In this document: positions 29,401-56,418 of the stretch, piece by piece
Layout: each line of letters starts with the position of its first letter
How positions within the stretch are numbered: the stretch's first letter is position 1
IMG/VR virus record: IMGVR_UViG_3300005911_000002
Span: 1-64,000 of that record
Reading direction: 5' to 3' (one strand)
From: a virus
DNA: 64,000 nucleotides
Translations under genes and position numbers: made by a program
Notes under the pieces: model-generated
Database searches by the model: none
What the model was told of the DNA's origin: nothing
The model's input: the letters and a program-made list of their open reading frames with translations, nothing else

Positions 29401-29605
29401 TAGGTACAGTCAGGGACTTATCGCTTTCCAGGAGTTTCCTGAATTTTTCAGGGTTTATTACATCCGCGTTGTTTGTATTAATACTTAGCTTGTCTAGTGA
29501 GAGTGATCTGCTACCGTCCGTTATTGGGAACGCTGCTTCCTTGTATTTCTCAAATACCTCAGCGAGTCTATCGTTAAATTCCTTGGCACTTTTTATATTA
29601 TACAT
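23495..29605 (-). CDS. rpoBC: phage multisubunit-type RNA polymerase, fused beta-beta' single chain
   Basis: beta: GDKVSGRYGNKG, NSEDAIV, GGKSGGKTVG; beta': NRAPTLHK, NMDFDGD, bridge helix, CxxC Zn site, AAQTLGEP..Q.AMRVFHTG trigger loop; no internal stop; start at ATG 29605 (GAAGGGG RBS plus promoter). Confidence 0.95.
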   Translation of the reverse strand: MYNIKSAKEFNDRLAEVFEKYKEAAFPITDGSRSLSLDKLSINTNNADVINPEKFRKLLESDKSLTVPIYGTFSFRVGTELIDKAKVKIGDMPVRTAAGTYIVGGTEFKVTKMLRLRSGVYTEVKKNGEIEAKLNLQKGHNLTMSLDPVKKIFTVVLKGRKYPVYSILTHLDIPDSDMREAWGPELFEANSSRGSKHESDFLNFATNYTYKAYKDIDAAEGAVEDRFNDTVLDKKTTEKTLGTSFEKMDAKTLLATSSRILEVFKDNGKQDNKDDSYFAKAVDEVAMLSDDYILNPRKVKSSQGALKVRMRTRKTIKEIVPTNYLNGNITPLFNQSSLAAPIDFVNPLNFIDEDIHYTRKGEGGIESDHAITEKAMMVYGSSAGVLDPLHTPDDAAGISVKLPVGTMQKGDAFSKKLYNPKTGQEESVSNDDMYKYTIAFAGQYDYNKKQWRDDEVYAVSKGSEDKVPSSEVDYIFRYATELYSPSTNLTPFLSSNMGNRVNMSAKMAGQTLLLKNPEAPLIQTLDDRTGTSFEKIMARDSVPTAQGAGKVTSVGKKSMTVEYENGETEKLPFYQNYKIGDSSYVTTEASVSEGSTVKKGDKLMRSNYEKDDTLALGVNLNVAYMPYHSMNSEDAIVLFESGAKKMTSEHMYKMEISKKGAHFDFTRFKNVAMGKLSSLETSNLDQDGIVKKGSKVHDGSVIAAYLVEKSLSEEDKLLAKVHSTLSSPFREKIVRWEHGASGEVISVRDTGKAIFIEVKTSEQAKKGDKVSGRYGNKGIISAVFPDEKAPTAPNGEKIGLIMSPLPVQKRLNVGQEHEVVLGRVADAQGAPIMVPGFSDESYYTSVKKKADELGIKPNEKLMVEGEETTDKVLWGKQYIYKLKYKEDKGFSARSYYGPTGFDKTPTAGGKSGGKTVGMLPMYSLMAHGAKANLRDIAIYKSQDNPEFWRSYITGSQLPTPSPTFSYHMFMDYLKGAGIKPKKSGDQIKLVPLTDRDILGQSKGEVTEAKVVIAKTLLPEKNGLFDIKITGGTDGENWSHIALTRKIPNPVFEPAIKNILDITQTQYDDLVAGRTEVDGKKFGDAMQAMLSKISPEEELANLKKEAATAEGSALNKLNKKMRFLKNMIDGKLTARSFFLHNVPVVPPKIRPVYPDDTGNLINSPLNDLYKDLILLNNASKSKFVPQREQENIAKDIYDQTKRLMGYATASDKARLNPKKANQKGLVELIAGDSPKEGYFQKKMVKKRQNLTGAGVVSIDTKMDIDEIGIPEEMAYKMFEPMIKRKMLSAGMTPFEAMAEVDNKTPVAARILGKVMDEKHVIVNRAPTLHKYGVMAFKPKLVQGKSIRVPLMVVKGFNMDFDGDKVLVHTPVTAKAEAEAHLMLPSNNVIHPTKGEVMNMPSWDDLTGLYAMTKDGKSTDKKYKTTTDALEAYLAGDISENDMIKVKRKMTNIGRIMVNNALPDGVDINEAVTDGSLSAAVKSVVKNTPDQIGKVLKDVKLIGDTYATRRGMSLNYDDLAPIKEVDDLIKTVTGVENAAEIQGKIQDVIKDRMKDTYYDYVDASGAKGQWAPVTQIIGSPIMFQGPGGSVPPIISKDSYASGLSPSAFWGMGYAARMGGVSKAKSVVEPGAFSKEILAASSGITITTEDCKTSEGKMFPVSSPEVLNRFAVRNIRVGGKVIHPKDQHLDANAIKNLKNHGIREVYARSPLKCKAIKGICRRCHGYLANGILPGKGDNVGTLAAQTLGEPLVQMAMRVFHTGSTVGSSVGAIGSLDRIRQITQLPKKIKDRAILAPKDGFVTDINESSIGGWDVNIGTKKLYVPAAVGLKVKKGDMIHAGDSVSYGNIHPMDIKDIKGADAALDFIADELTSLYQSAGVGIKRSTAEVVTRSMGKFSRVTDAGTSSSVVPGDIVDTSFVNHYNENSVKEMDVEFSVGKRLAESVSGFPIRSMIDDKMMEALLNEGVETVRVFTTPIKADKVIIGTNRSPLMNQDWLQRLGYRELKGSLQKGVAFGDSTHIAGPESSMFTRYVYGPSVIE

Positions 29606-29639
29606 GAACGTTGTGTCCCCTTCATAACCGATTTCTCTA

Positions 29640-29668
29640 ATTCTATCACGTTCAAGATTTGTTGTCAA
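29640..29668 (-). promoter_or_regulatory. sigma70/sigmaA-type promoter of the RNAP gene
   Basis: TTGACA-17-TAGAAT with extended TG on the minus strand. Confidence 0.7.
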
Positions 29669-29727
29669 TTTGCATAATATATTATATATTAACCCAGTAA
29701 TAGGAAGGTGACTAGGAAATATCATTC

Positions 29728-30178
29728 TGTCATGTTTTGACCCATAAATGTCATGTTTCGGGTCAAAAATGTCATGTTTCGGGTCAAAAATGTCATGTCT
29801 AAAAATCAGTGCTCACCTACTACTATACTATACTATAACTATTATATTTATATATATATAATAATAGAATACATGACAAAATACCAGAATTATTAATGGT
29901 AACTACTCATGTACGGATTGAAAAAAATTATTAATTAGTGTTTCATTTTTTTTTATGGTTTCCCTAAGGGGGTACATTTTTTTTTCTACATTTTTGTCAT
30001 GTCTGAGAGTAAATGCCTTGGTACGACTGGTCGGAAGCGCGAGACATTTTGTTTTCAAAATGTCATGTCTAGTTTTGATAGAAGTCTGATATCCCCGTCT
30101 ATGACTAGTCTAGACCCCTGTCAAAAACGTCATATTTTTGTCATGTCATTTTGTCCTGTTTGGGTATTTTTGTCCTGT
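29728..30178. repeat. iteron array plus AT-rich tract; candidate replication origin
   Basis: TGTCATGT at 29728, 29749, 29770, 29791 (21-bp period), inverted at 29871, again at 29995, 30061, 30139; TGTCCTGT at 30152, 30171; AT tract 29820-29870. Confidence 0.75.
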
Positions 30179-30248
30179 TTTGTTTATGATCGCACATAGT
30201 TTTGTAACAATTGTTACAATTTTGGTATAAATGACCAAGGAGGGATTT

Positions 30249-37780: not shown

Positions 37781-38740
37781 ATGAATATAACACGAGAAGA
37801 AAAAGTTAAAGTTGCTGGTGTTTTTCGCGAAACACTTATTGATGGAAATATCAAAGAAGCCGAAGCTCAGATTTCTGATTACGTAAAACTACGTATTAGA
37901 GAAGAATCTGTTGCCAAACAGCTTTTTAGGGTCCGGGACGATATTACTCTTAAGAGTAGAGAAGTCAGAGAACAAGATGAACTTGTTGATGATGCTAATC
38001 AGCTCTTTAAAGGGATGCTCGAAAACAACATAGAATTGTTCGTAAGAACAAAACTAGCAAAATACGCCACCGCAGAACAAGGCTCTTTCACTAGAAATAG
38101 TAGAGTCCGCAGAGAAAGAAGAGAATATGCTTACTTTCCAATCATGAGAATCTGGACTGACGTCTATGAATTCGACTTGGACAAGTTAGATATCCATTCT
38201 GACACAGAGCTTATTACGGAGCTTGAGAATGACTTCGTATATGCTTTCAACGACAGACTCGATGCAATTGTTCTTCAGTTATTCTTGGATGCTATTGGTA
38301 AAGTTACTGCAAACAACGTAGTTTCTGCAAATGCTAATGCTACAAGAGCGGACTGGAAAGCTTTGATTGACGCTATGGAAGCCAACAAACTGTTGGCCAG
38401 TGTACTCGCTACATCAACCACAAGAGCAAGGGATACATTCCTTCTCACTGGTACAGATATAGGTGATCACGCTGGAGAAACTTTTAGACAGGGTGACAAG
38501 TACTTTGAAACTATCGCTGGTCTTAAGAAAGTAACATCTGTTGCTTCTCCACTTACCGTCGATAATGTTGTATGGTGTATGGCTTCATCTGATTATGTTG
38601 GTGATATGTTTAATGTAACTCCAATGACAATCAGAACGAAAGAAATACCTTTCGAAAACAAAATGCAAATGAAGGGTTTTTGTGATGTAGCTGTTGGACT
38701 TGCTAACATTAAAGGTGTTGCAAGACTTAGCTTCACATAG
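37781..38740 (+). CDS. major capsid protein (HK97 fold)
   Basis: Position, size, strong codon bias, RIREES N-arm, C-terminal VGLANIKGVARLSF, strong terminator after. Confidence 0.75.
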   Translation: MNITREEKVKVAGVFRETLIDGNIKEAEAQISDYVKLRIREESVAKQLFRVRDDITLKSREVREQDELVDDANQLFKGMLENNIELFVRTKLAKYATAEQGSFTRNSRVRRERREYAYFPIMRIWTDVYEFDLDKLDIHSDTELITELENDFVYAFNDRLDAIVLQLFLDAIGKVTANNVVSANANATRADWKALIDAMEANKLLASVLATSTTRARDTFLLTGTDIGDHAGETFRQGDKYFETIAGLKKVTSVASPLTVDNVVWCMASSDYVGDMFNVTPMTIRTKEIPFENKMQMKGFCDVAVGLANIKGVARLSFT

Positions 38741-38765
38741 AAACTGTTCGCGCAACGCGATATAT

Positions 38766-38799
38766 AAAAAGCACGAGGGTTTGGCTCTCGTGCTTTTTT
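38766..38799 (+). terminator. intrinsic terminator
   Basis: AAAAAGCACGAG/CTCGTGCTTTTTT stem. Confidence 0.85.
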
Positions 38800-38859
38800 C
38801 TTGTATTTTTGTCGTATATGTGATATAATCATATTATTAAAATTCCATGGAGGATTAGT

Positions 38860-39243
38860 ATGAAAAAAGTTATAGTAAAGAATAAGTCAGAGGCGACCCT
38901 AGTATTAGATGGTGGCCCGGTAGTTAAGGGTCTAGAGGAGAAGTTAGTCGACGCTGATATTATGTTACGACCCTCAAACAAACGGCTATTAGGCAAATAC
39001 ATCCAGATTCTTGAAGCTACAATGCCTGTTGCTACCGTCCCAGAACCATTGAAAGAAGCACCTAAAGTAGCTGCGCCCGTAGTACCTGCGGTACCTGATG
39101 TAGAGGCGGTCGTAGAACCAGACCCACTCGAAGCAGACATACTCGCGGCTATGGAAGCAAGCATTAAAGAAGAGCCTGCAGTTAAAGAAGATGTTAAGGA
39201 AGACGTGCCTGAAGTTAAGAAAAAAAGAAACAGAAAAAAATAG
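38860..39243 (+). CDS. hypothetical protein
   Basis: GGAGG RBS; promoter TTGTAT-17-TATAAT at 38801-38829. Confidence 0.6.
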   Translation: MKKVIVKNKSEATLVLDGGPVVKGLEEKLVDADIMLRPSNKRLLGKYIQILEATMPVATVPEPLKEAPKVAAPVVPAVPDVEAVVEPDPLEADILAAMEASIKEEPAVKEDVKEDVPEVKKKRNRKK

Positions 39244-39313: not shown

Positions 39314-39718
39314 ATGAGTATATTAGAAAAAATAAGAAAAAGGATGAAGGACACAGAGGAAGCAAACGCGATCCTAAACGCAGTTGAGTTTTCAGAAGTA
39401 ACTATGCAGGATGCGATTGATGAAGCAGTTGACGAGTTCAACACATTATATGCCCCCCAGAGTTCTGATACGGAAGAAACCATTCCGTTTTTTGCTTTAT
39501 TTTTCGGAGTATGTACAAAGCTTCATGAAACCGCTAAGCTAGTAGCCAAGAGGAACTCGATTGCGTATAACGACGCAGGTGAGTCTCTTGACTACGATGG
39601 GAATAAAGACAGGGCCTATTCAGAATCTCTGCAGTACTTTTCTACTTTGTGGGAAAGGAGACAGAGGAATCTTAAGGCCAAAAAGAATGCACTGGGGTTT
39701 ATGGGGTCACTAGTATGA
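39314..39718 (+). CDS. head-tail adaptor protein
   Basis: Helical ~130-aa protein after the capsid gene; AIDEAVDEFN and Y.D.G.S patterns. Confidence 0.55.
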   Translation: MSILEKIRKRMKDTEEANAILNAVEFSEVTMQDAIDEAVDEFNTLYAPQSSDTEETIPFFALFFGVCTKLHETAKLVAKRNSIAYNDAGESLDYDGNKDRAYSESLQYFSTLWERRQRNLKAKKNALGFMGSLV

Positions 39719-40512
39719 TCATAGGGAGAATGCTTCCAACTGGGCCGTACTCGATTTATTTAGAATGGAGTATCCGAGATATTGAGCTCTTAACCATGGA
39801 CACTGTTGAAATATACAGGAGTAGTGGTGAAGCAGGTCCCTACGATTTGAAAGTTAGCCTTGATACTGGGCCCGCAGCTTACCTAGACGAGGGTATGAAC
39901 AATGTTTCATATCAAAGAGTATTTTACTACATCATCAAACTGGTTAGGGATGATGAGGTAATCGACCAGTCCCCCAAGCTGTGCATAGAACATACGGACG
40001 GACAGCAAGACCTTCTATATGGTATGATACAACGCGCGTCGTCTATCGGCTATCGAAGGTTGTTTGGTTCCAAATTATATGTTCTCCAGAAAAGGGACTG
40101 GGGTGTCCCTTGCGAGTGTCGCGACATGATACGAGGGCACTCTAGCGAGGATGACTGTAGAGCCTGTTATGGGACTAGCTTCCATGGCGGGTTTTACACC
40201 CCAGTTATAACAAGAGGTAAAAGGTCCCCGTTTGTTAAGAAATCTATAATGCAGTATTTTGTGACAGAACCGGGTGACGAGATGATAAAGCTAATGAACT
40301 ATCCTGTAGTTAAGGTGGGGGACACGTTAGTGGATTCTATGAATCATAGATATGAAATTATAAACATCCGAGTGAATAGGCGGCTGGACTTAATGGTCTC
40401 CCAACTATTGCAGGTTCGGAGATACCCGTCAATTAGCGACTTGATTTATATGTATGATTTAGATATCCCAGCCCTTAAACCTGAAATCTACAGGACGCAT
40501 GTTCCACTATAA
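39715..40512 (+). CDS. neck/head-closure protein
   Basis: FN3-like N-terminus; CxC...CxxCxGT.F.GGF motif; position. Confidence 0.55.
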   Translation: MIIGRMLPTGPYSIYLEWSIRDIELLTMDTVEIYRSSGEAGPYDLKVSLDTGPAAYLDEGMNNVSYQRVFYYIIKLVRDDEVIDQSPKLCIEHTDGQQDLLYGMIQRASSIGYRRLFGSKLYVLQKRDWGVPCECRDMIRGHSSEDDCRACYGTSFHGGFYTPVITRGKRSPFVKKSIMQYFVTEPGDEMIKLMNYPVVKVGDTLVDSMNHRYEIINIRVNRRLDLMVSQLLQVRRYPSISDLIYMYDLDIPALKPEIYRTHVPL

Positions 40513-40524
40513 ACTGGGGGAGCA

Positions 40525-41004
40525 ATGCGAGTAGTAATAGAACCTAAAACACAACTACCATATCAGAATAAAGAGTTATCAGATGATAGATATAAGCAGC
40601 TACTGCTGTTTAAGTGTATCGAAGAGATAAAAAAAGTAATGGCTTCGGGGATATTTAAACACCCTACGGGAGCACTTATGAACTCTATAAACGGGTATGT
40701 TGTTGGCGAATATATCATTATCTATTCAGATAAACAATACGCGACAGCGCAGGAGTTCGGGGTTAAGCCCCATGCTATGTGGTATCTACTTGGGAAGACC
40801 GTCCCGATTAAAATATTCAACACATTTGGCGGTCCTCCTAAAACGATCTATAGGAAGGTTACCTTCGAAGCGTTGTCCAGGGGTAAGTGGCATCATCCGG
40901 GTTCTCCGGGGAAATACTTTATGAAAACAGGTATTGACAAAGCAATGTCCCAGGCAACGGAGTTAAGGATGAAGATGATAAGTGGGGGGAATGTATTCAT
41001 ATGA
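40525..41004 (+). CDS. neck/virion morphogenesis protein (HK97 gp10-like)
   Basis: TGALMNSI...YA..QEFG...W.HPG...FM pattern. Confidence 0.6.
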   Translation: MRVVIEPKTQLPYQNKELSDDRYKQLLLFKCIEEIKKVMASGIFKHPTGALMNSINGYVVGEYIIIYSDKQYATAQEFGVKPHAMWYLLGKTVPIKIFNTFGGPPKTIYRKVTFEALSRGKWHHPGSPGKYFMKTGIDKAMSQATELRMKMISGGNVFI

Positions 41005-41714
41005 TTAAAATAGCAGGATATCAGGGAGTTTCTACTGTAGACTACCCTGGAAAACTTTCGTTTGTGATGTATACTTATGGGTGCCCCATGAGGTGCCCTT
41101 ACTGTTTCAATAGTGCTCTCGTAGATCCATGTATGGAAAAAGATATGACATTCCTAACAAAAGATGATATCTACTCTGTGCTGGATTCTAGAAAAGATTT
41201 TGTAGAGGCTATCGTTATATCTGGTGGAGAGCCTACCCTACATTCAGGGTTAATACCGTTTATTAGGGAGCTCAGGGATAGGTATCCGTTAGCTATCAAA
41301 GTAGATACTTCCGGGATAAACCCAGGAGTCCTGCTAAAACTTATGGATGGGGTGGACTATATCGCCATGGATGTGAAAACATCTTTTGATAAGTATAGTA
41401 TGTTCTCCCCGGATGTAACTGCTTGGAGGAGAATACTCGAGAGTATGGTATTTTTAAATAATAACGGTAGGTGTGACTATGAGTTTAGAACTACCGTGTG
41501 GAAGGGCGGATTCAATCTAGAGGATGCAGTTTTAGTAGCTAGATTTATGTCAGGCGGTGCTACATATTATCTACAGAACTTGGTGGATAACGCTAGCCCG
41601 ATGCTTCTCCCAGACAAAGTCGGGGATGAGAGATATACGAAGAAAGAAGTGCTTGCGATAGCAAAAGAACTCGGGGATTCCGGAGTAACTGTAAAACTTA
41701 GGGGGTTTGATTAA
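41001..41714 (+). CDS. nrdG: anaerobic ribonucleotide reductase activase (radical SAM)
   Basis: S.VDYPG, GCPMRCPYCFN (CxxxCxxC), SGGEPT, YEFRTT. Confidence 0.9.
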   Translation: MIKIAGYQGVSTVDYPGKLSFVMYTYGCPMRCPYCFNSALVDPCMEKDMTFLTKDDIYSVLDSRKDFVEAIVISGGEPTLHSGLIPFIRELRDRYPLAIKVDTSGINPGVLLKLMDGVDYIAMDVKTSFDKYSMFSPDVTAWRRILESMVFLNNNGRCDYEFRTTVWKGGFNLEDAVLVARFMSGGATYYLQNLVDNASPMLLPDKVGDERYTKKEVLAIAKELGDSGVTVKLRGFD

Positions 41715-42361
41715 TGCGACAAGAGAGTATAGAGTATGTAAAACAAACACACCGGAATATGGTATCTTTTCCGAAAATGGTGGGGATATCGTGCTTGCAG
41801 TGGATGTTCCAAAATAACCCTGAATATCCCTGGAGCCCAAGCCCAACCGAATCAAAAATACTTATACAGGAAGATGGGATATTCCCAGAGGAAGTCGGTA
41901 CCAGGCCTATCGTAGTTATGTCTAGAGCCCCTATATCGTTCTTGAGTACATCCATGGACCAACGGAAATCAGGAACTTTCCAGTTTATGGGGGGTGCGAG
42001 GAATTACAAGGAGTCATTTCTAGACTTAGTCCAGTGTTCTTTGACGTTCAACTGTATTGGAAAAACTAGAATTGTAGCTGAATATATAGCCATGGCCGTA
42101 GTAGCTGTATTTCATTTCTTTCATACTGACGTTCAGGCGGTATTTAACATACATGACCTGGAGCTACGATCTATCGGCAGCGACCAAGCTTTAATGGGGG
42201 CTGATGGCAGGCAATTCCTAGCTCATTTTATCCCTGTGAACGTTCATATGATATGGCCTTATGAGTGGACTAAATATCAATTGGACCCGGAGGTATTAAG
42301 GCAATTGTTCATAGAGCAGGTAGATGAGAATGGTCTGACTTTTCAAACAACAGACCCATAG
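41714..42361 (+). CDS. tail completion/terminator protein
   Basis: Position in the neck module; RPIVVMSR and a beta-rich C-terminus. Confidence 0.5.
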   Translation: MRQESIEYVKQTHRNMVSFPKMVGISCLQWMFQNNPEYPWSPSPTESKILIQEDGIFPEEVGTRPIVVMSRAPISFLSTSMDQRKSGTFQFMGGARNYKESFLDLVQCSLTFNCIGKTRIVAEYIAMAVVAVFHFFHTDVQAVFNIHDLELRSIGSDQALMGADGRQFLAHFIPVNVHMIWPYEWTKYQLDPEVLRQLFIEQVDENGLTFQTTDP

Positions 42362-42394
42362 TAAAAAAAGGGGCGTGAGCCCCTGTACTGCATA

Positions 42395-42637
42395 CTACTC
42401 TACCGGAGCTTCTCCGACTTTCGAAGGGGTCTCCTTATGATTCGCGGCTGCCCAGCAATTAGTCAAAGTATGCAGGGCGTCCAACATAATATGATCACTC
42501 CGAACATTAATTCTAGACGATATTAGCTGACTCTTATTATCAGCATCCTCTTCAATAATGCACAGCACAAACTGAGTTCCATGTGTTCGACAAAGCTCGT
42601 CTACTACCGATATAGCCTTGCTTAATGATTCGTTCAT
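42395..42637 (-). CDS. hypothetical protein
   Basis: GGAGG RBS; GGCATAAA 35 nt upstream; terminator at 42363-42384. Confidence 0.55.
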   Translation of the reverse strand: MNESLSKAISVVDELCRTHGTQFVLCIIEEDADNKSQLISSRINVRSDHIMLDALHTLTNCWAAANHKETPSKVGEAPVE

Positions 42638-42731
42638 AATAACCTCCAAGTTAAGTAATATTGCTTTATGCCACGTTTATAGTATATTAGAAAAACAGGT
42701 ATAAATAAGTAACAATCAAAAGGAGGGGTAT

Positions 42732-43679
42732 ATGACCAAAAAGATATCACCGTTGGTAGCCCTCCCTAGTGGGTGGGTACTTCCGAACACACACCAGAAA
42801 TATGCTAGTGATAGGAGGAATATCATGGACACACTATATTTCGCAAAACTAGTCGGTACAATAGATAAGTTGACAGACTCTGAGAAGATCACAACCTCCG
42901 CGTGGGGTTTGTTAGATGAACTCGAGGTAGCCGCACGAGGAACATTTTTGGGAAAGATTTGCATCAGCCATGGGAGTTCCGTCGGGTGCTACTTTACAAC
43001 AGCCCCTCCGTGGGTTATGGCTAGTGAAAAAACACCCTATGGGTTATTTATGCAGCATGACGGCAGGGTAGCTCGGAAGTATTTCCTGCAAGGTAAGGTA
43101 GATAGCATCCTTAAAGTATTGGATACCTGGGCTAACCAAGTAAAAAACGGAACCCCTCTGTTAGCTATTGACGTCAAGAGAAAGCATGATTTCGAGGACA
43201 CCCTGGCGGAATACGAAAAGTTCGTAGAACTCACTGACTTAGAGTACGACGTCGGGGTGTTCCTGCTCAAGAGCACACCTGATAAAGAAGCTGCCTCAAA
43301 GAGTCTACTGGAAATTGTCAAGGTAGGCGAGCATGGTCCCAACCTGCTAGTACCACTAGACAAAATGGCGTGGACTCCGGTAGAGGGGAACAGGTACGTG
43401 ATAGAAGCGGGTAAAACTAATATATGGAATCGCACATACAGTGAGAGGCAGCGAGAATTTAAGTGCAGACTCTTGGCATACCACGCGTTAGCAAACGATG
43501 ATCTACCCGACTTCCTTGTACACTTGCTGGGTGTAGCTGATAGGGGTATCCTGGAATCCCATCTCGGCAAAAGACTAAGAGATAAAGTATATAGGCAGCT
43601 AGGAATATGGGCTCTCATGGGCAAGTCGAAAGCTGAGAATAACATCAGAGAACTGGCAGATCAGGATTTCCAAGATTAA
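42732..43679 (+). CDS. hypothetical protein
   Basis: 315-aa ORF; AGGAGG RBS; GGTATAAA upstream; no recognisable motif. Confidence 0.65.
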   Translation: MTKKISPLVALPSGWVLPNTHQKYASDRRNIMDTLYFAKLVGTIDKLTDSEKITTSAWGLLDELEVAARGTFLGKICISHGSSVGCYFTTAPPWVMASEKTPYGLFMQHDGRVARKYFLQGKVDSILKVLDTWANQVKNGTPLLAIDVKRKHDFEDTLAEYEKFVELTDLEYDVGVFLLKSTPDKEAASKSLLEIVKVGEHGPNLLVPLDKMAWTPVEGNRYVIEAGKTNIWNRTYSERQREFKCRLLAYHALANDDLPDFLVHLLGVADRGILESHLGKRLRDKVYRQLGIWALMGKSKAENNIRELADQDFQD

Positions 43680-43710
43680 GTATTATATGGTATAAAGAAA
43701 AGAATAAGAA

Positions 43711-44079
43711 ACAGTTACTACGACGGTAGTAACTGTAGGTACTACGTCTTTCCGTGCTGCGGGGGAGCGTATGTTTAGTGATAGGCAGCTGTCCTACGTG
43801 GGGACAATGGAAGTAGGGTAATTGGTACCCAACCACGAGCGGATCCTTTGTACCATCCGCTAGTAGCTACATAGCTACGCACCTCGAAGCTACGATGCTT
43901 CAAGTACCTAAGCGCATGAACGGCGCAATGTCCAACCGAGGACACTAAACTCGGCAATAATATCTTGGGGAAGATCCAAGACGCTGGTAAGGCTCAGGCG
44001 GACATAAGAGCTAAGGACTTAGATCCGAATTGAATAGGCGCAAGCCGAATTATATAAATTTAGCCTTCGGGCTTTTTTT
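43711..44079 (+). ncRNA. large structured non-coding RNA of unknown class (~370 nt)
   Basis: Intergenic and more GC-rich than its flanks; more than 12 nested stems; GCAA and UUCG tetraloops; upstream GGTATAAA; terminal hairpin with U-run. Confidence 0.7.
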
Positions 44080-44215
44080 ATCCCTAAAGAAAGATTTATA
44101 TGATATAATAAGGTGTTCTGATAGATAAAGCAAAATCATAAAAAATACACAAATATAATAAAAATTGCTTGACGAATAAACTGTATTGATGTAAACTAAT
44201 TGTAGAGGTTGAGAG

Positions 44216-44806
44216 ATGAAAAAATATATTAAACTATCAGAATATGCAAAAAATCATAATCTAAGTTATGTTACTGCCTATAACCACTTTAAAAAAGGTT
44301 TTGTTCCCAACACAAAACAATTGATAACCGGAACAATCTTGGTTGAGGAAGAGCAAGAAAAAACTGTTGGTGTGATTAAAAAAGCGTGTGTATACGCAAG
44401 AGTACCCAGTAATGAAATGAAAGACAACCTGATAAGACAACAAGAAAGACTAGAAAACTTTGCGATTTCTAATGGGTTTGAGGTTATAAAATCAGTTAAA
44501 GAAATAGGTTCTGGGTTAAATGATAAGCGGAAGAAACTTGAGAAAGTGTTAAAGGACGATAGTTGGAATGTTCTTATTGTCGAACACAAAGATAGACTAA
44601 CTAGATTTGGTTTTAATTATATAGAAACACTTCTAAATAACATTGGGAAAGAAGTAATTACGGTAAATAAACAGGATGATAAACAAAATGATTTAATGGA
44701 AGATTTAGTTTCTATAATCTACTCATTTTCTGCCAGAATGTACGGGCTGAGAAGAAGTAAGAGAAAGGCTGAAAAGATTATTAAAGAAATACAAGAGGAA
44801 GATTAG
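44216..44806 (+). CDS. tnpA: IS607 serine recombinase TnpA (catalytic Ser replaced by Pro)
   Basis: N-terminal HTH; YARVPS (canonical YARVSS); EIGSGLN; EHKDRLTRFG; FSARMYG. Confidence 0.9.
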   Translation: MKKYIKLSEYAKNHNLSYVTAYNHFKKGFVPNTKQLITGTILVEEEQEKTVGVIKKACVYARVPSNEMKDNLIRQQERLENFAISNGFEVIKSVKEIGSGLNDKRKKLEKVLKDDSWNVLIVEHKDRLTRFGFNYIETLLNNIGKEVITVNKQDDKQNDLMEDLVSIIYSFSARMYGLRRSKRKAEKIIKEIQEED

Positions 44807-46017
44807 TGAATTTAGTTGAACAACATATTATAAAAAAGAAACATAGGTTATATGACGAGCTGGATAGCCTGTCATTCCTCTCCAAAAATTTGTATAATGC
44901 TGCCAACTATATTATCAGACAGGGATTTATTAATAATAAGCAGTATTTAAATTACACTAAAGTCTTTCATCTAATAAAAAAGACGGTCGATTATAAACAG
45001 CTACCGGCCAAGGTGAGTAATCAAACATTAAGGTCTCTGGATGGTAACTGGGTTAGTTTTTTCAGGGCAATAAAAGATTGGGGAAAGCATCCAGAAAAGT
45101 ATAACAGCAAACCCGGACTCCCTAAGTATAAGAAAAAGTCGTCTGGCAGGAACATCATTATCTACGAAAAACAGGCGGTGGGAAAACGCCATCTTCTTAA
45201 ATATAATGAGATTAAATTGTCTAAGTCTAATATTAGTATAAGAACAAAAATCAGCTATACTGAGTTAAGGCAGGTTAGGGTTATTCCAAGGTATGACCAC
45301 TATATAGTGGAAGTAGTACATGTCAAAAAGGAGGTAGATAATGACCTGAATGAAAATAATTTTCTTGGAGTTGATATGGGCATGAATAATTTGTGTGCTG
45401 CAAGCACTTTGGATGGGGACTTTTTCCTGATAAATGGAAGACCCCTAAAGGCTATAAACCATTATTACAATAAAAAACTAAGTAGACTAAAATCTGAGCT
45501 GGAGAAATCTAACAGTAAAAGAAAATCGTTAAGAACCCGAAAATTAACTAATAAAAGAAACAGGAAGATAAAACATTACTTACACAAAGTTAGTAAGTTT
45601 ATTATCAACTTCTGCTTAACTAACAATATTGGTAAAATAATCGTGGGGAAAAATGATAATTGGAAGTCTGAAATATCCTTGGGCAAGAAAACTAACCAGA
45701 ACTTTGTTCAAATACCACATTCACTTCTTGTAAATCAGATTAAATATAAGGCGAAGTTACAGGGGGTGTCCGTAATTCTTCAGGAAGAGAGCTACACCTC
45801 CAAGTGTAGTTTTATAGACAACGAACAGGTTGGGAGACATGAACGGTATGCTGGAAAGAGAATAAAAAGAGGATTATTTAAGTCTAAAGAAGGAATTCTG
45901 ATAAATTCAGATATTAACGGTAGCCTGAACATTATTAAAAAAGTAGTCTCAAACTTCACTATTCGTGAAAATGAGATAAAGGGCTTTGCAGTAAGCCCAA
46001 GATTGGTAGCTTTATGA
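44806..46017 (+). CDS. tnpB: TnpB RNA-guided endonuclease
   Basis: LYNAANY; RuvC-I GVDMG; IIVGKN..WK; EESYTSK; RuvC-III NSDING..NI. Confidence 0.9.
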   Translation: MNLVEQHIIKKKHRLYDELDSLSFLSKNLYNAANYIIRQGFINNKQYLNYTKVFHLIKKTVDYKQLPAKVSNQTLRSLDGNWVSFFRAIKDWGKHPEKYNSKPGLPKYKKKSSGRNIIIYEKQAVGKRHLLKYNEIKLSKSNISIRTKISYTELRQVRVIPRYDHYIVEVVHVKKEVDNDLNENNFLGVDMGMNNLCAASTLDGDFFLINGRPLKAINHYYNKKLSRLKSELEKSNSKRKSLRTRKLTNKRNRKIKHYLHKVSKFIINFCLTNNIGKIIVGKNDNWKSEISLGKKTNQNFVQIPHSLLVNQIKYKAKLQGVSVILQEESYTSKCSFIDNEQVGRHERYAGKRIKRGLFKSKEGILINSDINGSLNIIKKVVSNFTIRENEIKGFAVSPRLVAL

Positions 46018-46070
46018 GTTATGATTCTAAAGGAAAAAGATTTTTTAATATTTTTCCATACTGTAATCTG

Positions 46071-46280
46071 ATGAAGATAAAGAATAATAGAGGTGGTGGA
46101 CCAGGTATACCTATATGGTTACTAGGTGTTTTTCTACTATGCGCATATGGTATTCCCGCGGCTAACGTAGTACTGCTAATGGTGGCTGTTTATAAAAAGA
46201 GTAAGAAGCTCGCTATAATATCAGGAGTCCTGTGGATACTAATGATAAGCTTTTACGTATGGCTAACATGCCTACGGTAA
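46071..46280 (+). CDS. small membrane protein
   Basis: Two or three hydrophobic helices; ATG lies exactly at the inferred IS right junction. Confidence 0.55.
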   Translation: MKIKNNRGGGPGIPIWLLGVFLLCAYGIPAANVVLLMVAVYKKSKKLAIISGVLWILMISFYVWLTCLR

Positions 46281-46372
46281 ATTTGGTGATCGTATTACTG
46301 GCCACCGGGGGCTCTGAGTGGTAAAAACCATACTCAGCTAGTGGTGGGCATTTTCGCGTTATCTTTTTTTAA

Positions 46373-46401
46373 GTGACAAACCTATAATATCATGCTATAC
46401 T
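46373..46401 (+). promoter_or_regulatory. sigmaA-type promoter of the sheath/tube operon
   Basis: GTGACA-17-TATACT with extended TG. Confidence 0.65.
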
Positions 46402-46437
46402 ATAATAGAAAACGTATATAAAAAGGAGGATACGAGC

Positions 46438-48276
46438 ATGACAACTACAGGAAGATCAACTGGTGTAAATGTATACCAGATTATAGAAACTGTTGCTCAA
46501 TCGTTGGGGCTTCCAGAATTAGTCCCAGTCATAATCGGTCCGTGCTACCAAATACGCGACTATACCGACGGAACTGCCGGTGCCTACGCTGCTGCGGAAA
46601 CTACATACAGTTACCCAGACCTTATTAGCGGAGCTATCCCAGATCCAGAAAGCGTTGTAGTGTATGGAAGATATCGAGACAAACCACTGGAAGTTATTGC
46701 CGCGGCAAGTTTTAGTGCTGACGCATCAGGAATCACTGTTGTAGCTAGCCTAGTCGACGCATTAAGCCGACCTTTTACAGCAATGTACATTGGATATAAG
46801 GCTTTTAGAACTGACTTATCTGATGAGGTTGTAGAGGTTCAGCACGTTGACGAAATCGAAAGTTTACTGGGAGTTATTTCTTTAGATAACCCTCTTGCAT
46901 ACGCAGCTAGTAAGTGCGCTCTTGGAACATCATATTCATTTTACGCAATAGGGATTGATGCAGATAGTGAAGTTGGCTACCAAAAAGCAGCGAACAACCT
47001 GGAAACTGAAGAATGTTACTTTATGGTACCATTGTCATCAGATGCGGCGGTCATTCAGATATTTAATGATCACGTGAATCAAATGTCAGACCCGCTGGAA
47101 AGAAAAGAGCGTATAGTTCTATCAACAGTAGACCTGATACTTAATGAAACTTATATTGAGGAAGGTGTTGCAGGGTCTATAGCAGACACGACTTCAACGT
47201 TCATCGATGCAGCGCAAGATTTCTTCTTGTCTGACGTAAGTGCGGGAATGACTGTTACAATAGACCCAAATCTCAGAGGTACTGGGACAGCGGGATCAGT
47301 TACAATTAGCACCGATGTGTTTACTGACTTGGACGCAGATTTTACTACAGATGGAGTATCCATTGGTGATTTTGTACAGATTCCTCTCGGACTGAATGCT
47401 GGATATCGCCAGGTTCTGGCCGTTACTTCTGCTACAGTGCTACAGCTAGACACAGTATTTTCAGCAACAGAAGCTAGTATCGGATATTCTATATCTGAAC
47501 TTGGCCCAAATGGCGGTGCTAAAACAATTGCAAGCGTTACTAGCGCTACCACACTTGTAATGAGCGCGGCGTTCACAACCACTGCTACTGCAATCAGCTA
47601 TACTATTATAGATGATTACTCTGACAGTAAGTATGAACAGGCTACTGCTTTGAAAAGTTATGCGGCAGCTATAGCAGACAAACGTGTTATGGTAATATTC
47701 CCAGATGTAGTCGTTGTATCAGTTAGCGGATCGGATGTTGATGTTCCGTCATACTATTTTGCAGCATACCTTGCGGGAAAGGCTTCTTTTGAGAAGGCTG
47801 ATAAGCCGTTTGCGAACCTTGCAATGGGTGGTGGTTTTGTAGGACTTAAGCACTCGAACAAATATTTTAATGAATCTCAGTTGAGAACTATCGCCGAAGG
47901 CGGTATTTATCTAGTTCAACAGGACTCCGTACAGGCTCCAGTTTATGCCAGACGGCAGTACATGACCGACACAAGTGACCTTAAAACTCAGGAATTTTCT
48001 ATTGTGAAAGCTGTGGATTGGGGAGCTAAGTATTACAGAGCTAACCTCAAACATCTTGTTGGTATCTATAATATATCGGACAGGTTTTTACAGAGGCTGG
48101 GTATCATCGTTGAGGGCATTAACGACTTCGTATCTGATGATGTGCATGGCGTATTCAGGTATGCATCGGTCAGAGAACTCGTACAAGACCCTATAGAACT
48201 CGACCACGTCGCACTCAGACTCAACATTGGTATTAAATACCCAATGAGTGAGATTGATGTGTACATGTACTTGTAA
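46438..48276 (+). CDS. contractile tail sheath protein
   Basis: GVNVYQ N-terminus; NPLAYA; C-terminal sheath domain EFSIVKAVD...YPMSEIDV. Confidence 0.85.
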   Translation: MTTTGRSTGVNVYQIIETVAQSLGLPELVPVIIGPCYQIRDYTDGTAGAYAAAETTYSYPDLISGAIPDPESVVVYGRYRDKPLEVIAAASFSADASGITVVASLVDALSRPFTAMYIGYKAFRTDLSDEVVEVQHVDEIESLLGVISLDNPLAYAASKCALGTSYSFYAIGIDADSEVGYQKAANNLETEECYFMVPLSSDAAVIQIFNDHVNQMSDPLERKERIVLSTVDLILNETYIEEGVAGSIADTTSTFIDAAQDFFLSDVSAGMTVTIDPNLRGTGTAGSVTISTDVFTDLDADFTTDGVSIGDFVQIPLGLNAGYRQVLAVTSATVLQLDTVFSATEASIGYSISELGPNGGAKTIASVTSATTLVMSAAFTTTATAISYTIIDDYSDSKYEQATALKSYAAAIADKRVMVIFPDVVVVSVSGSDVDVPSYYFAAYLAGKASFEKADKPFANLAMGGGFVGLKHSNKYFNESQLRTIAEGGIYLVQQDSVQAPVYARRQYMTDTSDLKTQEFSIVKAVDWGAKYYRANLKHLVGIYNISDRFLQRLGIIVEGINDFVSDDVHGVFRYASVRELVQDPIELDHVALRLNIGIKYPMSEIDVYMYL

Positions 48277-49617: not shown

Positions 49618-49988
49618 CCGAATCTAAAGTAAAGAGAATGCTGGATGCCAGGATATACAGGATAGCAATGTTATTAGGTGTCCCGGTCCATATTCTTCCG
49701 ATATCCGATAAGTTTAATACAGGGCTTCCTGATAGATTAATACTAACGTCAGGGGCCCCGTTTATGTATGAGGCTAAACTTGATGGTAAAAAATACGGGT
49801 TCACTAAAGTTCAGAAAGGGAAAGCTAGGCTGTTATACAGCGATTTGGGTATAAAAACATACGGCATTGAATCCAAGGATATGAAAACAATAAAAATATA
49901 TGATAGTCTTGATTCGGAAGCCATGGTGGTGCACGTAGACCATCTGGATATGATGCTAGAGCACATGCTAACGGAGGCAATAGGATGA
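49614..49988 (+). CDS. VRR-NUC / Holliday-junction-resolvase-like nuclease
   Basis: M.ES; GLPDRL; YEAK; T..Q (PD-(D/E)XK pattern). Confidence 0.7.
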   Translation: MTESKVKRMLDARIYRIAMLLGVPVHILPISDKFNTGLPDRLILTSGAPFMYEAKLDGKKYGFTKVQKGKARLLYSDLGIKTYGIESKDMKTIKIYDSLDSEAMVVHVDHLDMMLEHMLTEAIG

Positions 49989-52691: not shown

Positions 52692-52716
52692 AATAGGGGG
52701 CACCAGCCCCTTATTT

Positions 52717-53777: not shown

Positions 53778-55705
53778 TATGCCCTCCCCGTAGCAGTTAG
53801 TACTTGTTGCATCAGCCCTTCAATTTTAGACATATATTCCCTGGATTCATCTATATTTACTTTTGATAATTCAGCATAGGATGCCATTATATTACCCGAC
53901 AGCCTATTAGCATAATCGACTGAAGTAAACTCAGTTATAAGTATATCTAATACCGCAAGCATATCTACACTAGTGGTTTCGAGCTTTAGTTTCCTCAGCT
54001 CCTGACACAAGCTACCTTCGTATGTAGATGTTGTAGGCGTTGCCTTAAATACATCTTTAGTTGCACCCTTGCCAATGTCATCCCCGAGTTTTTTAAGACC
54101 CGCGGTATCGGCTGTGCTCTTTATATCCTCTAAAAAATTATCTTTAAAATCTTTAACGGGGGTAGAGTCTAACTTGTTATACGCAGATATTACACTGACT
54201 ACTTCAGTATTAAACGAAGTTAGCATGGTCTCGGTAGTTGACCGTAGTTCCGGTGTCATGACTTGCGCTCCAGTTATAAGGTCCTCTACAATCCTAAGGG
54301 CAGCACTAGCTTTATATACAACCTCGGTAGTATCCGGCTCCTCCCACGCAGACACTGCAGTTGCTGCCGATGTATACGCTGACTTTGCCACGAGAGGCAT
54401 ACTGGCTACAGCTGCACGCCCAACACTTGACGTTGCAATAGAGTCCAGATATGAAAGCATATCAGTAAACGAATCGTAAACGTCACGATAATACGGTAAC
54501 CCCTTCGACCTAGATGTCGATTGCGTATACGCCGCGGTCTTCTGCTCCAGGTCTTCGATTTTACCTTTTATAGCTCCCGGCATTACTTTTTGTAAAAAAT
54601 TAGATCGAGCATATTTCTCGGTATCGCTGAACAACGACATAGCCATATTAAGTTGATATCGTATGCCACTGGTATTCTCCGAGTTATATAGCGTGTAAGA
54701 TACTATATTTGAGAGAATATCACTGAACGATACCCCATATAAAATACCCTGCACTAAAATCCCTTCCAAGGTTGTTGTATCGTACTGACGACTAAAGCTT
54801 ATAAGATTTGCCGATGGCATGCTTCTCCCCATTAGTTGGGCAACTTGCTCTGGTGTGAATGACCCGGACATCTCTTGTAGTGCTATGGATGTAATAATAC
54901 TTTCTGGAGTAGCTCCCGACGTCATACCTACTATAACCTGCGTGGCAACCCCGTTAGGAAAGTATTTTCCGAATATACTCGATATCATAGTGTTCTGGGC
55001 TGTACCTTGCATAACTGCGGAGAGTATTTCTGGAGGAAGTAGTGCCCTAAGCTCATTATAGGCAGCGTCTTTTACAATATCACTCGTAAGGTTACGTCCC
55101 ACAAGACCATTTAGCAGGGCCGCGGATATCTTAGAGTCTATTGTTGTAGGGAGTATTTCCTGTGGGAGTGTTTTATTAGATACCATTTGTATCAGACCCC
55201 AAGCATCACTTATGGTACTTGACATCCCAGATAGTACAGTTCTTAATACCTGGGCCCCAAGGTCATATCTGTACGGCTCAGTGCTAACTATATTCTTTAC
55301 AGTTGAGATTGTGCCAGATACGTCCGGTATGTCGTAGTTACCGCTCAATGCCTCACCCAGAAGAGAGCTTATTGGGCTAGCCATATTCTCCAGGGCGCTA
55401 ACAGCCTCGTCTCTAAGGGTAGTGGCATGGGATATCGCATTAAAACCCATCCCTAGTATAGTTGTTGGAGAAGTTGTCATCCTTTGCAGCATAGACGCTT
55501 GTATTCGGTCCGTAGTACTCGTGTCTTTTAGATTATCAATGGGTGTCATATTATACTGGTCCATTGTTTTTTTCATCTGACCTGCCAATGCTAGTGCAGT
55601 TCCTTCTTCTTTATCAAGGGTCTGGTTCTTCTGCTTTTTCCACTCCTTGTACTCTTTCAGAGAATTACGCACCTCACTGTCAGTATACCATGTGTATGTA
55701 GTCAT
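53777..55705 (-). CDS. hypothetical tail/baseplate protein
   Basis: 642-aa helical ORF, coupled within the baseplate operon. Confidence 0.55.
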   Translation of the reverse strand: MTTYTWYTDSEVRNSLKEYKEWKKQKNQTLDKEEGTALALAGQMKKTMDQYNMTPIDNLKDTSTTDRIQASMLQRMTTSPTTILGMGFNAISHATTLRDEAVSALENMASPISSLLGEALSGNYDIPDVSGTISTVKNIVSTEPYRYDLGAQVLRTVLSGMSSTISDAWGLIQMVSNKTLPQEILPTTIDSKISAALLNGLVGRNLTSDIVKDAAYNELRALLPPEILSAVMQGTAQNTMISSIFGKYFPNGVATQVIVGMTSGATPESIITSIALQEMSGSFTPEQVAQLMGRSMPSANLISFSRQYDTTTLEGILVQGILYGVSFSDILSNIVSYTLYNSENTSGIRYQLNMAMSLFSDTEKYARSNFLQKVMPGAIKGKIEDLEQKTAAYTQSTSRSKGLPYYRDVYDSFTDMLSYLDSIATSSVGRAAVASMPLVAKSAYTSAATAVSAWEEPDTTEVVYKASAALRIVEDLITGAQVMTPELRSTTETMLTSFNTEVVSVISAYNKLDSTPVKDFKDNFLEDIKSTADTAGLKKLGDDIGKGATKDVFKATPTTSTYEGSLCQELRKLKLETTSVDMLAVLDILITEFTSVDYANRLSGNIMASYAELSKVNIDESREYMSKIEGLMQQVLTATGRA

Positions 55706-56418
55706 AATTTGCTTACTTTCTCTTTTAGTATATTTGAAATTCGCAGTCTAACTGAGCTAACCCACCTGGGTGACTTATTTTCCTGTATTGCAATATCTTG
55801 TGTAGATTTTCCGCTAAGTAGACTATCCATTATGCGATTTTCGGTCTCATCAAGTTCATACCTAGTCATCTCAAGTAAATCTTTTGGTGTGTAGTTCCGC
55901 ACAACGGAATCATCTCCACGTCCAACGTCAGCTTCTGGTTCGAGAGTATAATCTTTCCGAACCATTCTTCGTAGATCCCTTACTTGAGTTTGTGGTATAT
56001 TCATGTGGGTAGCTATCTCAAGCTCGTCAGGATCTCTCCCAAGGGATTCAGTGAGCTCCGTTACAGCCGTGTTATATGGTGAGATAAGTTGTATTTTACT
56101 TTCCGGGATTCTCCCCGTGTTTTGATGATTTCCAACATACCTATATAATTTTCTCAGATAGTAATCAACATGAGTTCCTATGGCAGCTTTCCCAGGTTTG
56201 TACGTTTCCAGAGCTTTGCCGGCTAGCCTATACCCCTCAGCCTTTATAGCTTGGAACGGTATCGGGGCGTTTCTATACTTACTTGCATGGTGAACTATAG
56301 CAGGTGTGAGGGACTCCATTAAATCATCAAGGGACTCTGTACTCCCCGTATCTTTCCAATCAGTCCATAACGCAAGCTGCCTATCAAATCTTGTTGTGGT
56401 ATTCGGCTGAGATTCCAT
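55702..56418 (-). CDS. sigma70-family RNA polymerase sigma factor
   Basis: Region 2 (EG...A.KALETY.P.K....T...Y), region 3 (LGRDP...EIA..M.I....V), region 4 HTH (L...E..I.......S..DIA). Confidence 0.85.
   Translation of the reverse strand: MESQPNTTTRFDRQLALWTDWKDTGSTESLDDLMESLTPAIVHHASKYRNAPIPFQAIKAEGYRLAGKALETYKPGKAAIGTHVDYYLRKLYRYVGNHQNTGRIPESKIQLISPYNTAVTELTESLGRDPDELEIATHMNIPQTQVRDLRRMVRKDYTLEPEADVGRGDDSVVRNYTPKDLLEMTRYELDETENRIMDSLLSGKSTQDIAIQENKSPRWVSSVRLRISNILKEKVSKL

Follow-up and report, generated by a model that had tools for sequence, protein, structure and literature searches.

A hairpin-rich noncoding stretch beside an IS607-type element in a divergent phage, a candidate orphan structured RNA

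Results

Genomic context of the locus

The DNA analyzed here (the window, 64,000 nucleotides) represents the first 64 kb of an IMG/VR virus record with a total length of 73,212 bp, for which CheckV estimated a completeness of 41%. PHROG matches in this phage comprised a GpA-type large terminase, a DNA polymerase, a helicase, and a sigma-like factor, and both NrdD and a radical-SAM protein were matched in Pfam as well as in PHROGs. The sigma-like ORF lies at 55702-56418 (phrog_351; 4.6e-8). Among 5.8 billion proteins, the best relatives of the terminase shared 59, 54, and 51% identity with it (P0122, P0123, and P0124). The best relatives in IMG/VR shared 29 to 33%, and identity was 26.7% or less among the 15 best-listed matches in GenBank phages. 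Judged by these sequence comparisons, the phage is isolated in sequence space and belongs to a lineage without a cultured relative. Metagenome runs from salt lakes carry DNA that is nearly identical to the stretch.

All genes from 30 to 52 kb, around the locus described here, are located on the plus strand. The cumulative GC skew turned at 29885 (minimum, approximately 29.9 kb) and at 52700 (maximum, 52.7 kb). An AT-rich region of repeats and palindromes at 29780-30240, situated between divergent gene blocks, coincides with the minimum; this region and the skew maximum are the likely replication origin and terminus, respectively. The candidate RNA locus was rejected as a replication origin because the turning points of the skew lie elsewhere, at 29.9 and 52.7 kb.

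Upstream of the locus, a 315-aa ORF (42732-43679), whose orphan product had been proposed as a candidate protein partner of the RNA, is preceded by its own GGTATAAAT and a strong Shine-Dalgarno site. Searches of its product against 5.8 G and 1.84 G proteins returned only the protein itself, and neither a Pfam nor a PHROG family was matched. In protein collections it is represented solely by a version of 220 aa beginning at residue 96 (P0001); the 4,966-bp contig encoding this version also encodes a 111-aa fragment of TnpA (P0079, 97% identity). The ESM Atlas model reached a pLDDT of 0.30 and gave no usable hit, and the single-sequence AlphaFold2 model (pLDDT 34.7) was too poor for a fold search. 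The protein has a pI of 7.1.

Downstream of the locus, we identified an IS607-type element, which was missing from the original prediction. It consists of tnpA, encoding a serine recombinase (44216-44806), and tnpB (44806-46017), both on the plus strand, and was recognized by matches in Pfam (Resolvase, 7.4e-17; OrfB_IS605, 1e-25; Cas12f1-like_TNB, 1.6e-9) and PHROGs (phrog_6620, 3.5e-48; phrog_506, 1e-43). The element starts 137 nt 3' of the candidate RNA, and its edges may lie at roughly 44080 and 46020-46070. Its GC content is 0.33, compared to 0.51 for the core of the candidate RNA and 0.43 for the genome. A GGGCTT/AAGCCC hairpin is located at 45981-45998, inside the 3' end of tnpB. The tnpB stop is overlapped by an ORF of 88 codons (46014-46280) that has no Pfam or PHROG match. 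By eye, two hydrophobic stretches can be seen in its product, compatible with a small membrane protein; this ORF may represent the phage gene that lay behind the RNA originally.

A noncoding, GC-rich stretch with a high density of hairpins

The region at 43.70 to 44.05 kb had been proposed to be noncoding, and it is: stops interrupt all six frames, which rules out a coding region on either strand. Its core (43711-44046) has a GC content of 0.506, compared to 0.427 for the genome. GC content then breaks at 44080 and falls to 0.25 over the next 136 nt. Other gaps of at least 60 nt in the record range from 0.26 to 0.44, with the exception of one 113-nt gap at 0.487. The Breaker laboratory is said to find structured RNAs by way of GC-rich intergenic regions, and in that light a GC excess in a noncoding gap is as expected of a structured RNA.

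Fourteen helices had been described for this stretch, and all 14 are present and pair as proposed. Only the TTCCGT/ATGGAA helix required a correction: it exists, with one G-U pair, but its ATGGAA strand occupies 43807-43812, one base off the position originally given. The listed helices alone account for -102.1 kcal/mol. The best fold retaining them has a predicted energy of -120.6 kcal/mol, and the unconstrained minimum free energy (MFE) is -126.6 kcal/mol. By these calculations, the original fold model is near optimal, not the MFE structure; in the latter, as well as in the centroid, local hairpins replace the TTCCGT/ATGGAA and GCTGC/GCAGC helices. A comparison with dinucleotide shuffles yielded a z score of -3.57 for the plus strand, with none of 100 shuffles folding as well. 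The minus strand gave a z score of -2.76, and 2 of 100 shuffles were as good.

A stable, perfect 11-bp hairpin with a GACG loop is located at 43711-43736 (-15.9 kcal/mol; z, -6.05); none of 200 shuffles reached this energy. The hairpin is followed by a first domain (43737-43909), which, in a model from this single sequence, is closed by a stem of 7 to 8 bp, AGGTACT/AGTACCT, and holds five to seven short hairpins, the perfect ones being at 43790, 43816, 43838, 43863, and 43886. The 3' domain (43910-44046) comprises a GCGC hairpin, the helices CCGAG/CTCGG and TCTTGG/CCAAGA, and a GGC-GCAA-GCC hairpin. Its closing stem ATGTCC/GGACAT is optional, and this is a part in which the MFE structure and the original model differ. 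The pentamer CTACG occurs five times in the candidate RNA, and three of the copies place UACG in a hairpin loop; the repeat is only a marginal hint, since some 5-mer reached five copies in 100 of 2000 shuffles. The helices include palindromes that resemble restriction sites, namely, GGTACC, GGATCC, and GTAGCTAC.

To put the density of hairpins into perspective, perfect local hairpins (stem of at least 5 bp, loop of 3 to 10 nt) were counted in 340-nt sliding windows at steps of 20 nt (n = 3183). The mean across the 64 kb was 2.59 hairpins per 340 nt (standard deviation, 1.70). Four sliding windows reached 11 to 12 perfect hairpins with 66 to 71 bp in stems, and all four are located at 43641-43701. 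The dense tiling by helices noted earlier is thus borne out, with the locus forming the top cluster of perfect local hairpins in the 64 kb. A coding region at 13.2 kb contained 10 short hairpins, by chance. Folding energy corrected for GC content was less striking, being good without being unique: 8 to 18 of 749 windows scored better than those starting at 43680-43710, and 59 to 66 of 749 scored better than those starting at 43720-43750. The best GC-corrected folding energy in the 64 kb was obtained at 38506-38930 (z, -3.5), where a strong intrinsic terminator is located.

The strand cannot be told from folding. Calculated core energies were -114.5 on the plus strand and -111.7 on the minus strand, and the full plus strand folded 9 kcal/mol better than the minus strand, which is a small asymmetry. 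Nearly all strong helices are composed purely of Watson-Crick pairs and, therefore, fit either strand, or cruciforms in the DNA, equally well.

A promoter-like motif in front of the candidate RNA

The motif GGTATAAA is located on the plus strand at 43689-43696, 22 nt 5' of the 11-bp hairpin. In the 73-kb record it is found 10 times on the plus strand and not once on the minus strand, with approximately 2.1 copies expected per strand. Nine copies lie in the window (6881, 9983, 12716, 16123, 18734, 30224, 42698, 43689, and 49848) and one lies in the remainder of the record (65653). Of the nine copies other than that at 43689, eight have a start codon with a Shine-Dalgarno site behind them, at +25 to +79 (in seven cases at +25 to +38). 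The DNA polymerase gene is among the genes preceded in this way, as is the 315-aa ORF. The copy at 49848 is situated inside a gene and is the sole other copy without a gene behind it. For the copy at 43689, no Shine-Dalgarno site with a start codon was found within the +25 to +79 range; the nearest start is a weak GGAGCGTATG at +82, which opens a frame of 16 codons.

The strand bias and the gene contexts argue that GGTATAAA is a real phage signal behaving as a promoter motif, so that the earlier claim of a promoter belonging to the RNA is well founded at the level of a sequence signal. The motif resembles the T4 late promoter TATAAATA. None of the minus strand genes in the 73-kb record is preceded by GGTATAAA, which implies that the minus strand gene blocks must use another signal.

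The 3' end and its flank

The RNA had also been proposed to end at a terminator of its own. An AGCC-UUCG-GGCU hairpin with a 4-bp stem, followed by U7, is indeed present on the plus strand at 44062-44079, but it is a weak terminator-like element: its energy is -5.1 kcal/mol, a value reached by 27 of 200 shuffles, and it was not listed by the terminator scan. The 3' end of the candidate RNA is consequently uncertain. By comparison, the clear intrinsic terminator at approximately 38771-38799 in this phage reached -20.9 kcal/mol; TGATATAAT and a gene at 38860 come after it. That same 9-mer, an extended -10-like site, follows the T-run of the locus on the plus strand at 44099-44107, where it may be a phage site or part of the transposon's left end.

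Read on the minus strand, the 11-bp hairpin precedes a T-rich run, and the terminator scan listed it as terminator-like (43736-43711; tail, TTCTTATTCT). The candidate RNA is flanked by an inverted repeat of 16 nt with 88% complementarity (43681-43696 with 44095-44110).

Comparison with known RNA classes

A search of the 64 kb with Rfam 15, as suggested along with the original prediction, gave no match at the gathering score. At an E value of up to 10, four hits of chance level (E, 2.6 to 6.7) were obtained in 43400-44400, all of them at or beyond 44049. The reported lack of tRNA, tmRNA, RNase P, and group I or group II intron hallmarks agrees with these searches, in which no corresponding model matched, and with ARAGORN, which found 0 tRNA or tmRNA genes. 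The 6S, SRP, riboswitch, T-box, leader, and small-ribozyme families of Rfam likewise had no match at the candidate RNA.

Three further kinds of RNA were considered and rejected. No RVT_1 match was present in the 73-kb record (approximately 41% complete), which speaks against a retron msr/msd RNA; Pfam matches among the eight ORFs at 39715-46280 were confined to the radical SAM gene and tnpA/tnpB, none of which is a reverse transcriptase. A sponge of the CsrB/RsmZ type was discarded on the basis of 8 GGA trinucleotides in 344 nt, with 7.2 expected and at least as many in 883 of 2000 shuffles. An antisense regulator was discarded as well, the candidate RNA sharing no more than 12 nt of complementarity with other parts of the record (E of at least 1.3).

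A structured RNA that adjoins a tnpB element is reminiscent of the guide RNAs of TnpB (omega RNA/RAGATH-18). However, omega RNAs are found at the 3' end of tnpB, whereas the candidate RNA is located 5' of tnpA. RAGATH-18 was detected at the 3' end of four elements of phage c-st, and the corresponding region of the element described here (45700-46450) gave neither a RAGATH-18 nor any other significant match.

GOLLD and ROOL are large, ornate noncoding RNAs associated with phages, and both are included in the Rfam library; neither is known to have a biochemical function. The candidate resembles them in being a large multihelix phage RNA without a protein-coding role. It differs in having about half their size or less, no Rfam match, no family, and no tRNA genes nearby. 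It also resembles the candidate structured RNAs that Fremin et al. (2023; PMC10690425) obtained from IMG/VR, inasmuch as it is intergenic and lies on an IMG/VR virus contig. Those motifs measure 29 to 151 nt and at least three distinct matching regions were required for each, in contrast to approximately 340 nt and no relative found for the RNA described here.

Searches for homologues

No homologue was detected by blastn among GenBank phages, and the candidate RNA has no second copy in the 73-kb record. A covariance model of the first domain (R1) was used for further searches. Neither R1 nor a DNA search found a homologue in 50 IMG/VR records of terminase relatives, chosen from 80 loci by the length of their contigs, and R1 alone found none over the window and 166 loci. 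An exact 16-mer scan of IMG/VR returned a single match in GC-rich coding DNA, which is attributed to chance and had no R1 hit. Peptide patterns from the 315-aa and 612-aa neighbors likewise retrieved no relatives from IMG/VR. RNA-seq runs carrying the stretch were not listed. In contigs from four salt-lake runs, the RNA sequence was identical wherever it was covered, and no variation was seen.

The transposon was searched for in its own right: out of 726 confirmed relatives of the IS607 TnpA, 160 loci were retained. Against 162 loci, including these 160, the candidate RNA gave nothing significant with blastn and nhmmer (best E, 0.055), and R1 had no match in L002-L163. The 303 nt upstream of the closest relative (L004; 68% TnpA identity) are AT-rich and could not be aligned with the candidate RNA. 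The GC composition, the GGTATAAA motif, and the 160 IS607 relatives without the RNA argue that the candidate RNA is the phage's own, outside the IS607-type element, and that the transposon probably landed beside it later. A group II intron domain (L089:1121-1217; RF00029, 66.6 bits), unrelated to the candidate RNA, was found in one of the loci, a Bacillota MAG contig, where it lies approximately 1.8 kb 5' of the gene for an IS607 TnpA relative.

Relationship to IStrons

In IStrons, which are known from Clostridium phage c-st, a group I intron is fused to an IS605 or IS607 element (PMC4227781; bioRxiv 10.1101/2023.11.20.567912). Those of group B, such as CbISt3 and CbISt4 of c-st, combine a group IA2 intron with an IS607-family element (PMC4227781; Zedaveinyte 2023, bioRxiv 10.1101/2023.11.20.567912). 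According to Tourasse 2014 (PMC4227781), they insert after GG, begin with U, and have a long AU-rich inverted-repeat stem of 15 to 34 bp around the ORFs. Next to tnpA and tnpB, such an arrangement must be excluded, and the long structured RNA directly 5' of tnpA, a position that is the hallmark of IStrons, together with a GG|T, meant that it had to be tested. The candidate RNA would then be the 5' part of a group I ribozyme that splices the transposon out of a host transcript.

As in group B IStrons, a long structured, noncoding gap (here, 536 nt) immediately precedes the tnpA-tnpB pair of an IS607-type element in a phage genome; a known c-st IStron has a gap of 517 nt at the same place. At the possible left boundary of the candidate RNA (43689-43691), 10 nt after the stop of the 315-aa ORF, GG|T fits insertion after GG and a start with U, as given for group B in PMC4227781. 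This GG|T is, however, part of a promoter motif that is present nine other times. Inverted pairs around the ORFs (15 to 17 nt; 75 to 87% complementary), e.g., 44132-44146 with 46040-46054, are at the level expected of AT-rich DNA. Contigs of the four salt-lake runs contained no joints and no transposon-free form of the site.

For a comparison of the group I core, we used five tnpB loci of c-st, two of which have long upstream gaps and an evident group I core sequence. In 1001 bases (43400-44400), RF00028 had no hit at an E value of up to 10. In a search of equal size, on 1001 bases of c-st, it did find the c-st intron (L254:2305-2540; 55.7 bits; E, 3.2e-13). The length of the search mattered, as the filters lost the c-st introns to RF00028 in a 14-kb E-value search and in a whole-record search; hence, only the 1-kb searches are informative, and negative group I results from long stretches are not to be trusted. 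An nhmmer profile of the two c-st introns, which are 59% identical, had no match in the 73-kb record at an E value of up to 10, and among the record and all loci it matched only the two introns themselves (L254, 1e-124; L253, 1.9e-93). The five core motifs are absent, their best matches having 2 to 4 mismatches and the wrong order. A P3-P8-P7 topology fitted by hand leaves only 2 nt for J8/7, which, given the usual length of J8/7, argues against an IStron. Further differences from group B IStrons are the phage promoter motif of the RNA itself, a GC content that is unlike that of the transposon and breaks at 44080, and the U-run and two promoter-like sites between the candidate RNA and tnpA. 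Given the negative RF00028 search with its working control, the negative profile, and the absent core motifs, an IStron or group I intron was rejected, and we regard this reading as extremely improbable.

Discussion

The locus at 43.70 to 44.05 kb combines a noncoding, hairpin-rich, and GC-rich stretch with a promoter-like motif and belongs to no known RNA family. These observations favor the original view of a discrete noncoding RNA, which is weakened by the poor terminator. The reading that we prefer, with a confidence slightly short of an even chance, is that of a stand-alone phage gene for a structured noncoding RNA of approximately 340 to 375 nt. The RNA is a credible orphan candidate, i.e., a putative family-less structured noncoding RNA encoded by the phage. 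Folds of a single sequence do not show function, no homologue was found, and both the 8 to 18 of 749 windows with a better GC-corrected MFE and the weak terminator count against a gene of this kind.

Transcription, its strand, the 3' end, and the mechanism as a whole are what we infer for such a gene. The plus strand would be transcribed from the GGTATAAA-type phage promoter, and the RNA would start with the stable 11-bp hairpin and end, leakily, at the weak UUCG hairpin and U7. As a guess at the mechanism, it would function in trans, either as a stable scaffold for protein binding or as a decoy. The short hairpins on the multihelix junction could present their loops, among which three contain UACG, to an RNA-binding protein of the phage or the host.

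Several other readings account for part of the same evidence. The layout of promoter, structured RNA, weak terminator, and genes on the same strand is that of a long cis-acting 5' leader, which might work as an attenuator, a riboswitch-like element, or a processive antitermination element. Before the transposon arrived, its targets would have been the 88-codon ORF (46014-46280) and the 612-aa gene at 46438, and the U7 hairpin, which is too weak to look constitutive, would be a regulated terminator. That every other copy of GGTATAAA has a gene behind it, except the one inside a gene at 49848, fits this. Nevertheless, 340 nt is very long for a leader, the riboswitch, T-box, and leader families gave no match, and TGATATAAT provides a second promoter-like site (44099-44107) after the U-run. 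In addition, the transposon now separates the RNA from these targets, yet its sequence is intact and identical across contigs. We consider a leader unlikely. The minus strand, for its part, could encode an RNA that ends at the 11-bp hairpin and its T-rich run, as the listing of 43736-43711 with the tail TTCTTATTCT by the terminator scan would allow; this strand, too, folds better than its shuffles (z, -2.76), and its core energy is close to that of the plus strand. But GGTATAAA does not occur on the minus strand anywhere in the record, the neighboring genes from 30 to 52 kb are all on the plus strand, and the full plus strand folds better by 9 kcal/mol, which leaves this reading with a very small probability.

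It is also conceivable that the locus acts only as DNA or is decaying, be it a cluster of palindromes bound by a protein, a MITE-like remnant, or an unusual spacer, and that there is no functional RNA. The helices are perfect inverted repeats and, as such, are the same on both strands; restriction-site-like palindromes (GGTACC, GGATCC, and GTAGCTAC) occur among them; the element is single copy; and the 16-nt inverted repeat (43681-43696 with 44095-44110; 88% complementary) flanks it. However, the left arm of this repeat is the promoter motif, with its 10 copies and the genes behind them, and its right arm, which is also found before the gene at 38860, is an extended -10-like site of the ordinary kind. 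The 73-kb record contains a single copy, the turning points of the GC skew lie elsewhere, and the GC excess in a noncoding gap is what a structured RNA leads one to expect. On balance, a role confined to the DNA, or no function at all, appears improbable to us.

Returning to the stand-alone RNA gene, a bolder version of this reading would make the candidate the first representative of a new class of large noncoding RNAs in phages, with a length of approximately 340 nt, a multihelix junction, and a phage-specific promoter. We deem this rather unlikely. Family-less large structured RNAs are rare and have repeatedly proved to be ribozymes, cores of ribonucleoproteins, or self-assembling particles. 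If such a class were real, the RNA might be a ribozyme, a scaffold for a ribonucleoprotein, or a decoy against host defense or the host transcription machinery. The candidate is a single sequence, and its value is that of a well-delimited candidate. An RNA under a phage-specific promoter, in a lineage without a cultured relative, would offer a new handle on phage-host RNA biology. The host of this class would be a deeply divergent phage of approximately 180 kb with its own fused beta/beta'-like RNA polymerase. In the window, several PHROGs of RNA polymerase beta subunits (phrog_25354, 1.3e-92; phrog_3295, 7.6e-26) were matched by an ORF of 2076 aa on the minus strand (23495-29725), which, by these matches, looks like a fused phage RNA polymerase of the multisubunit (beta/beta'-like) type.
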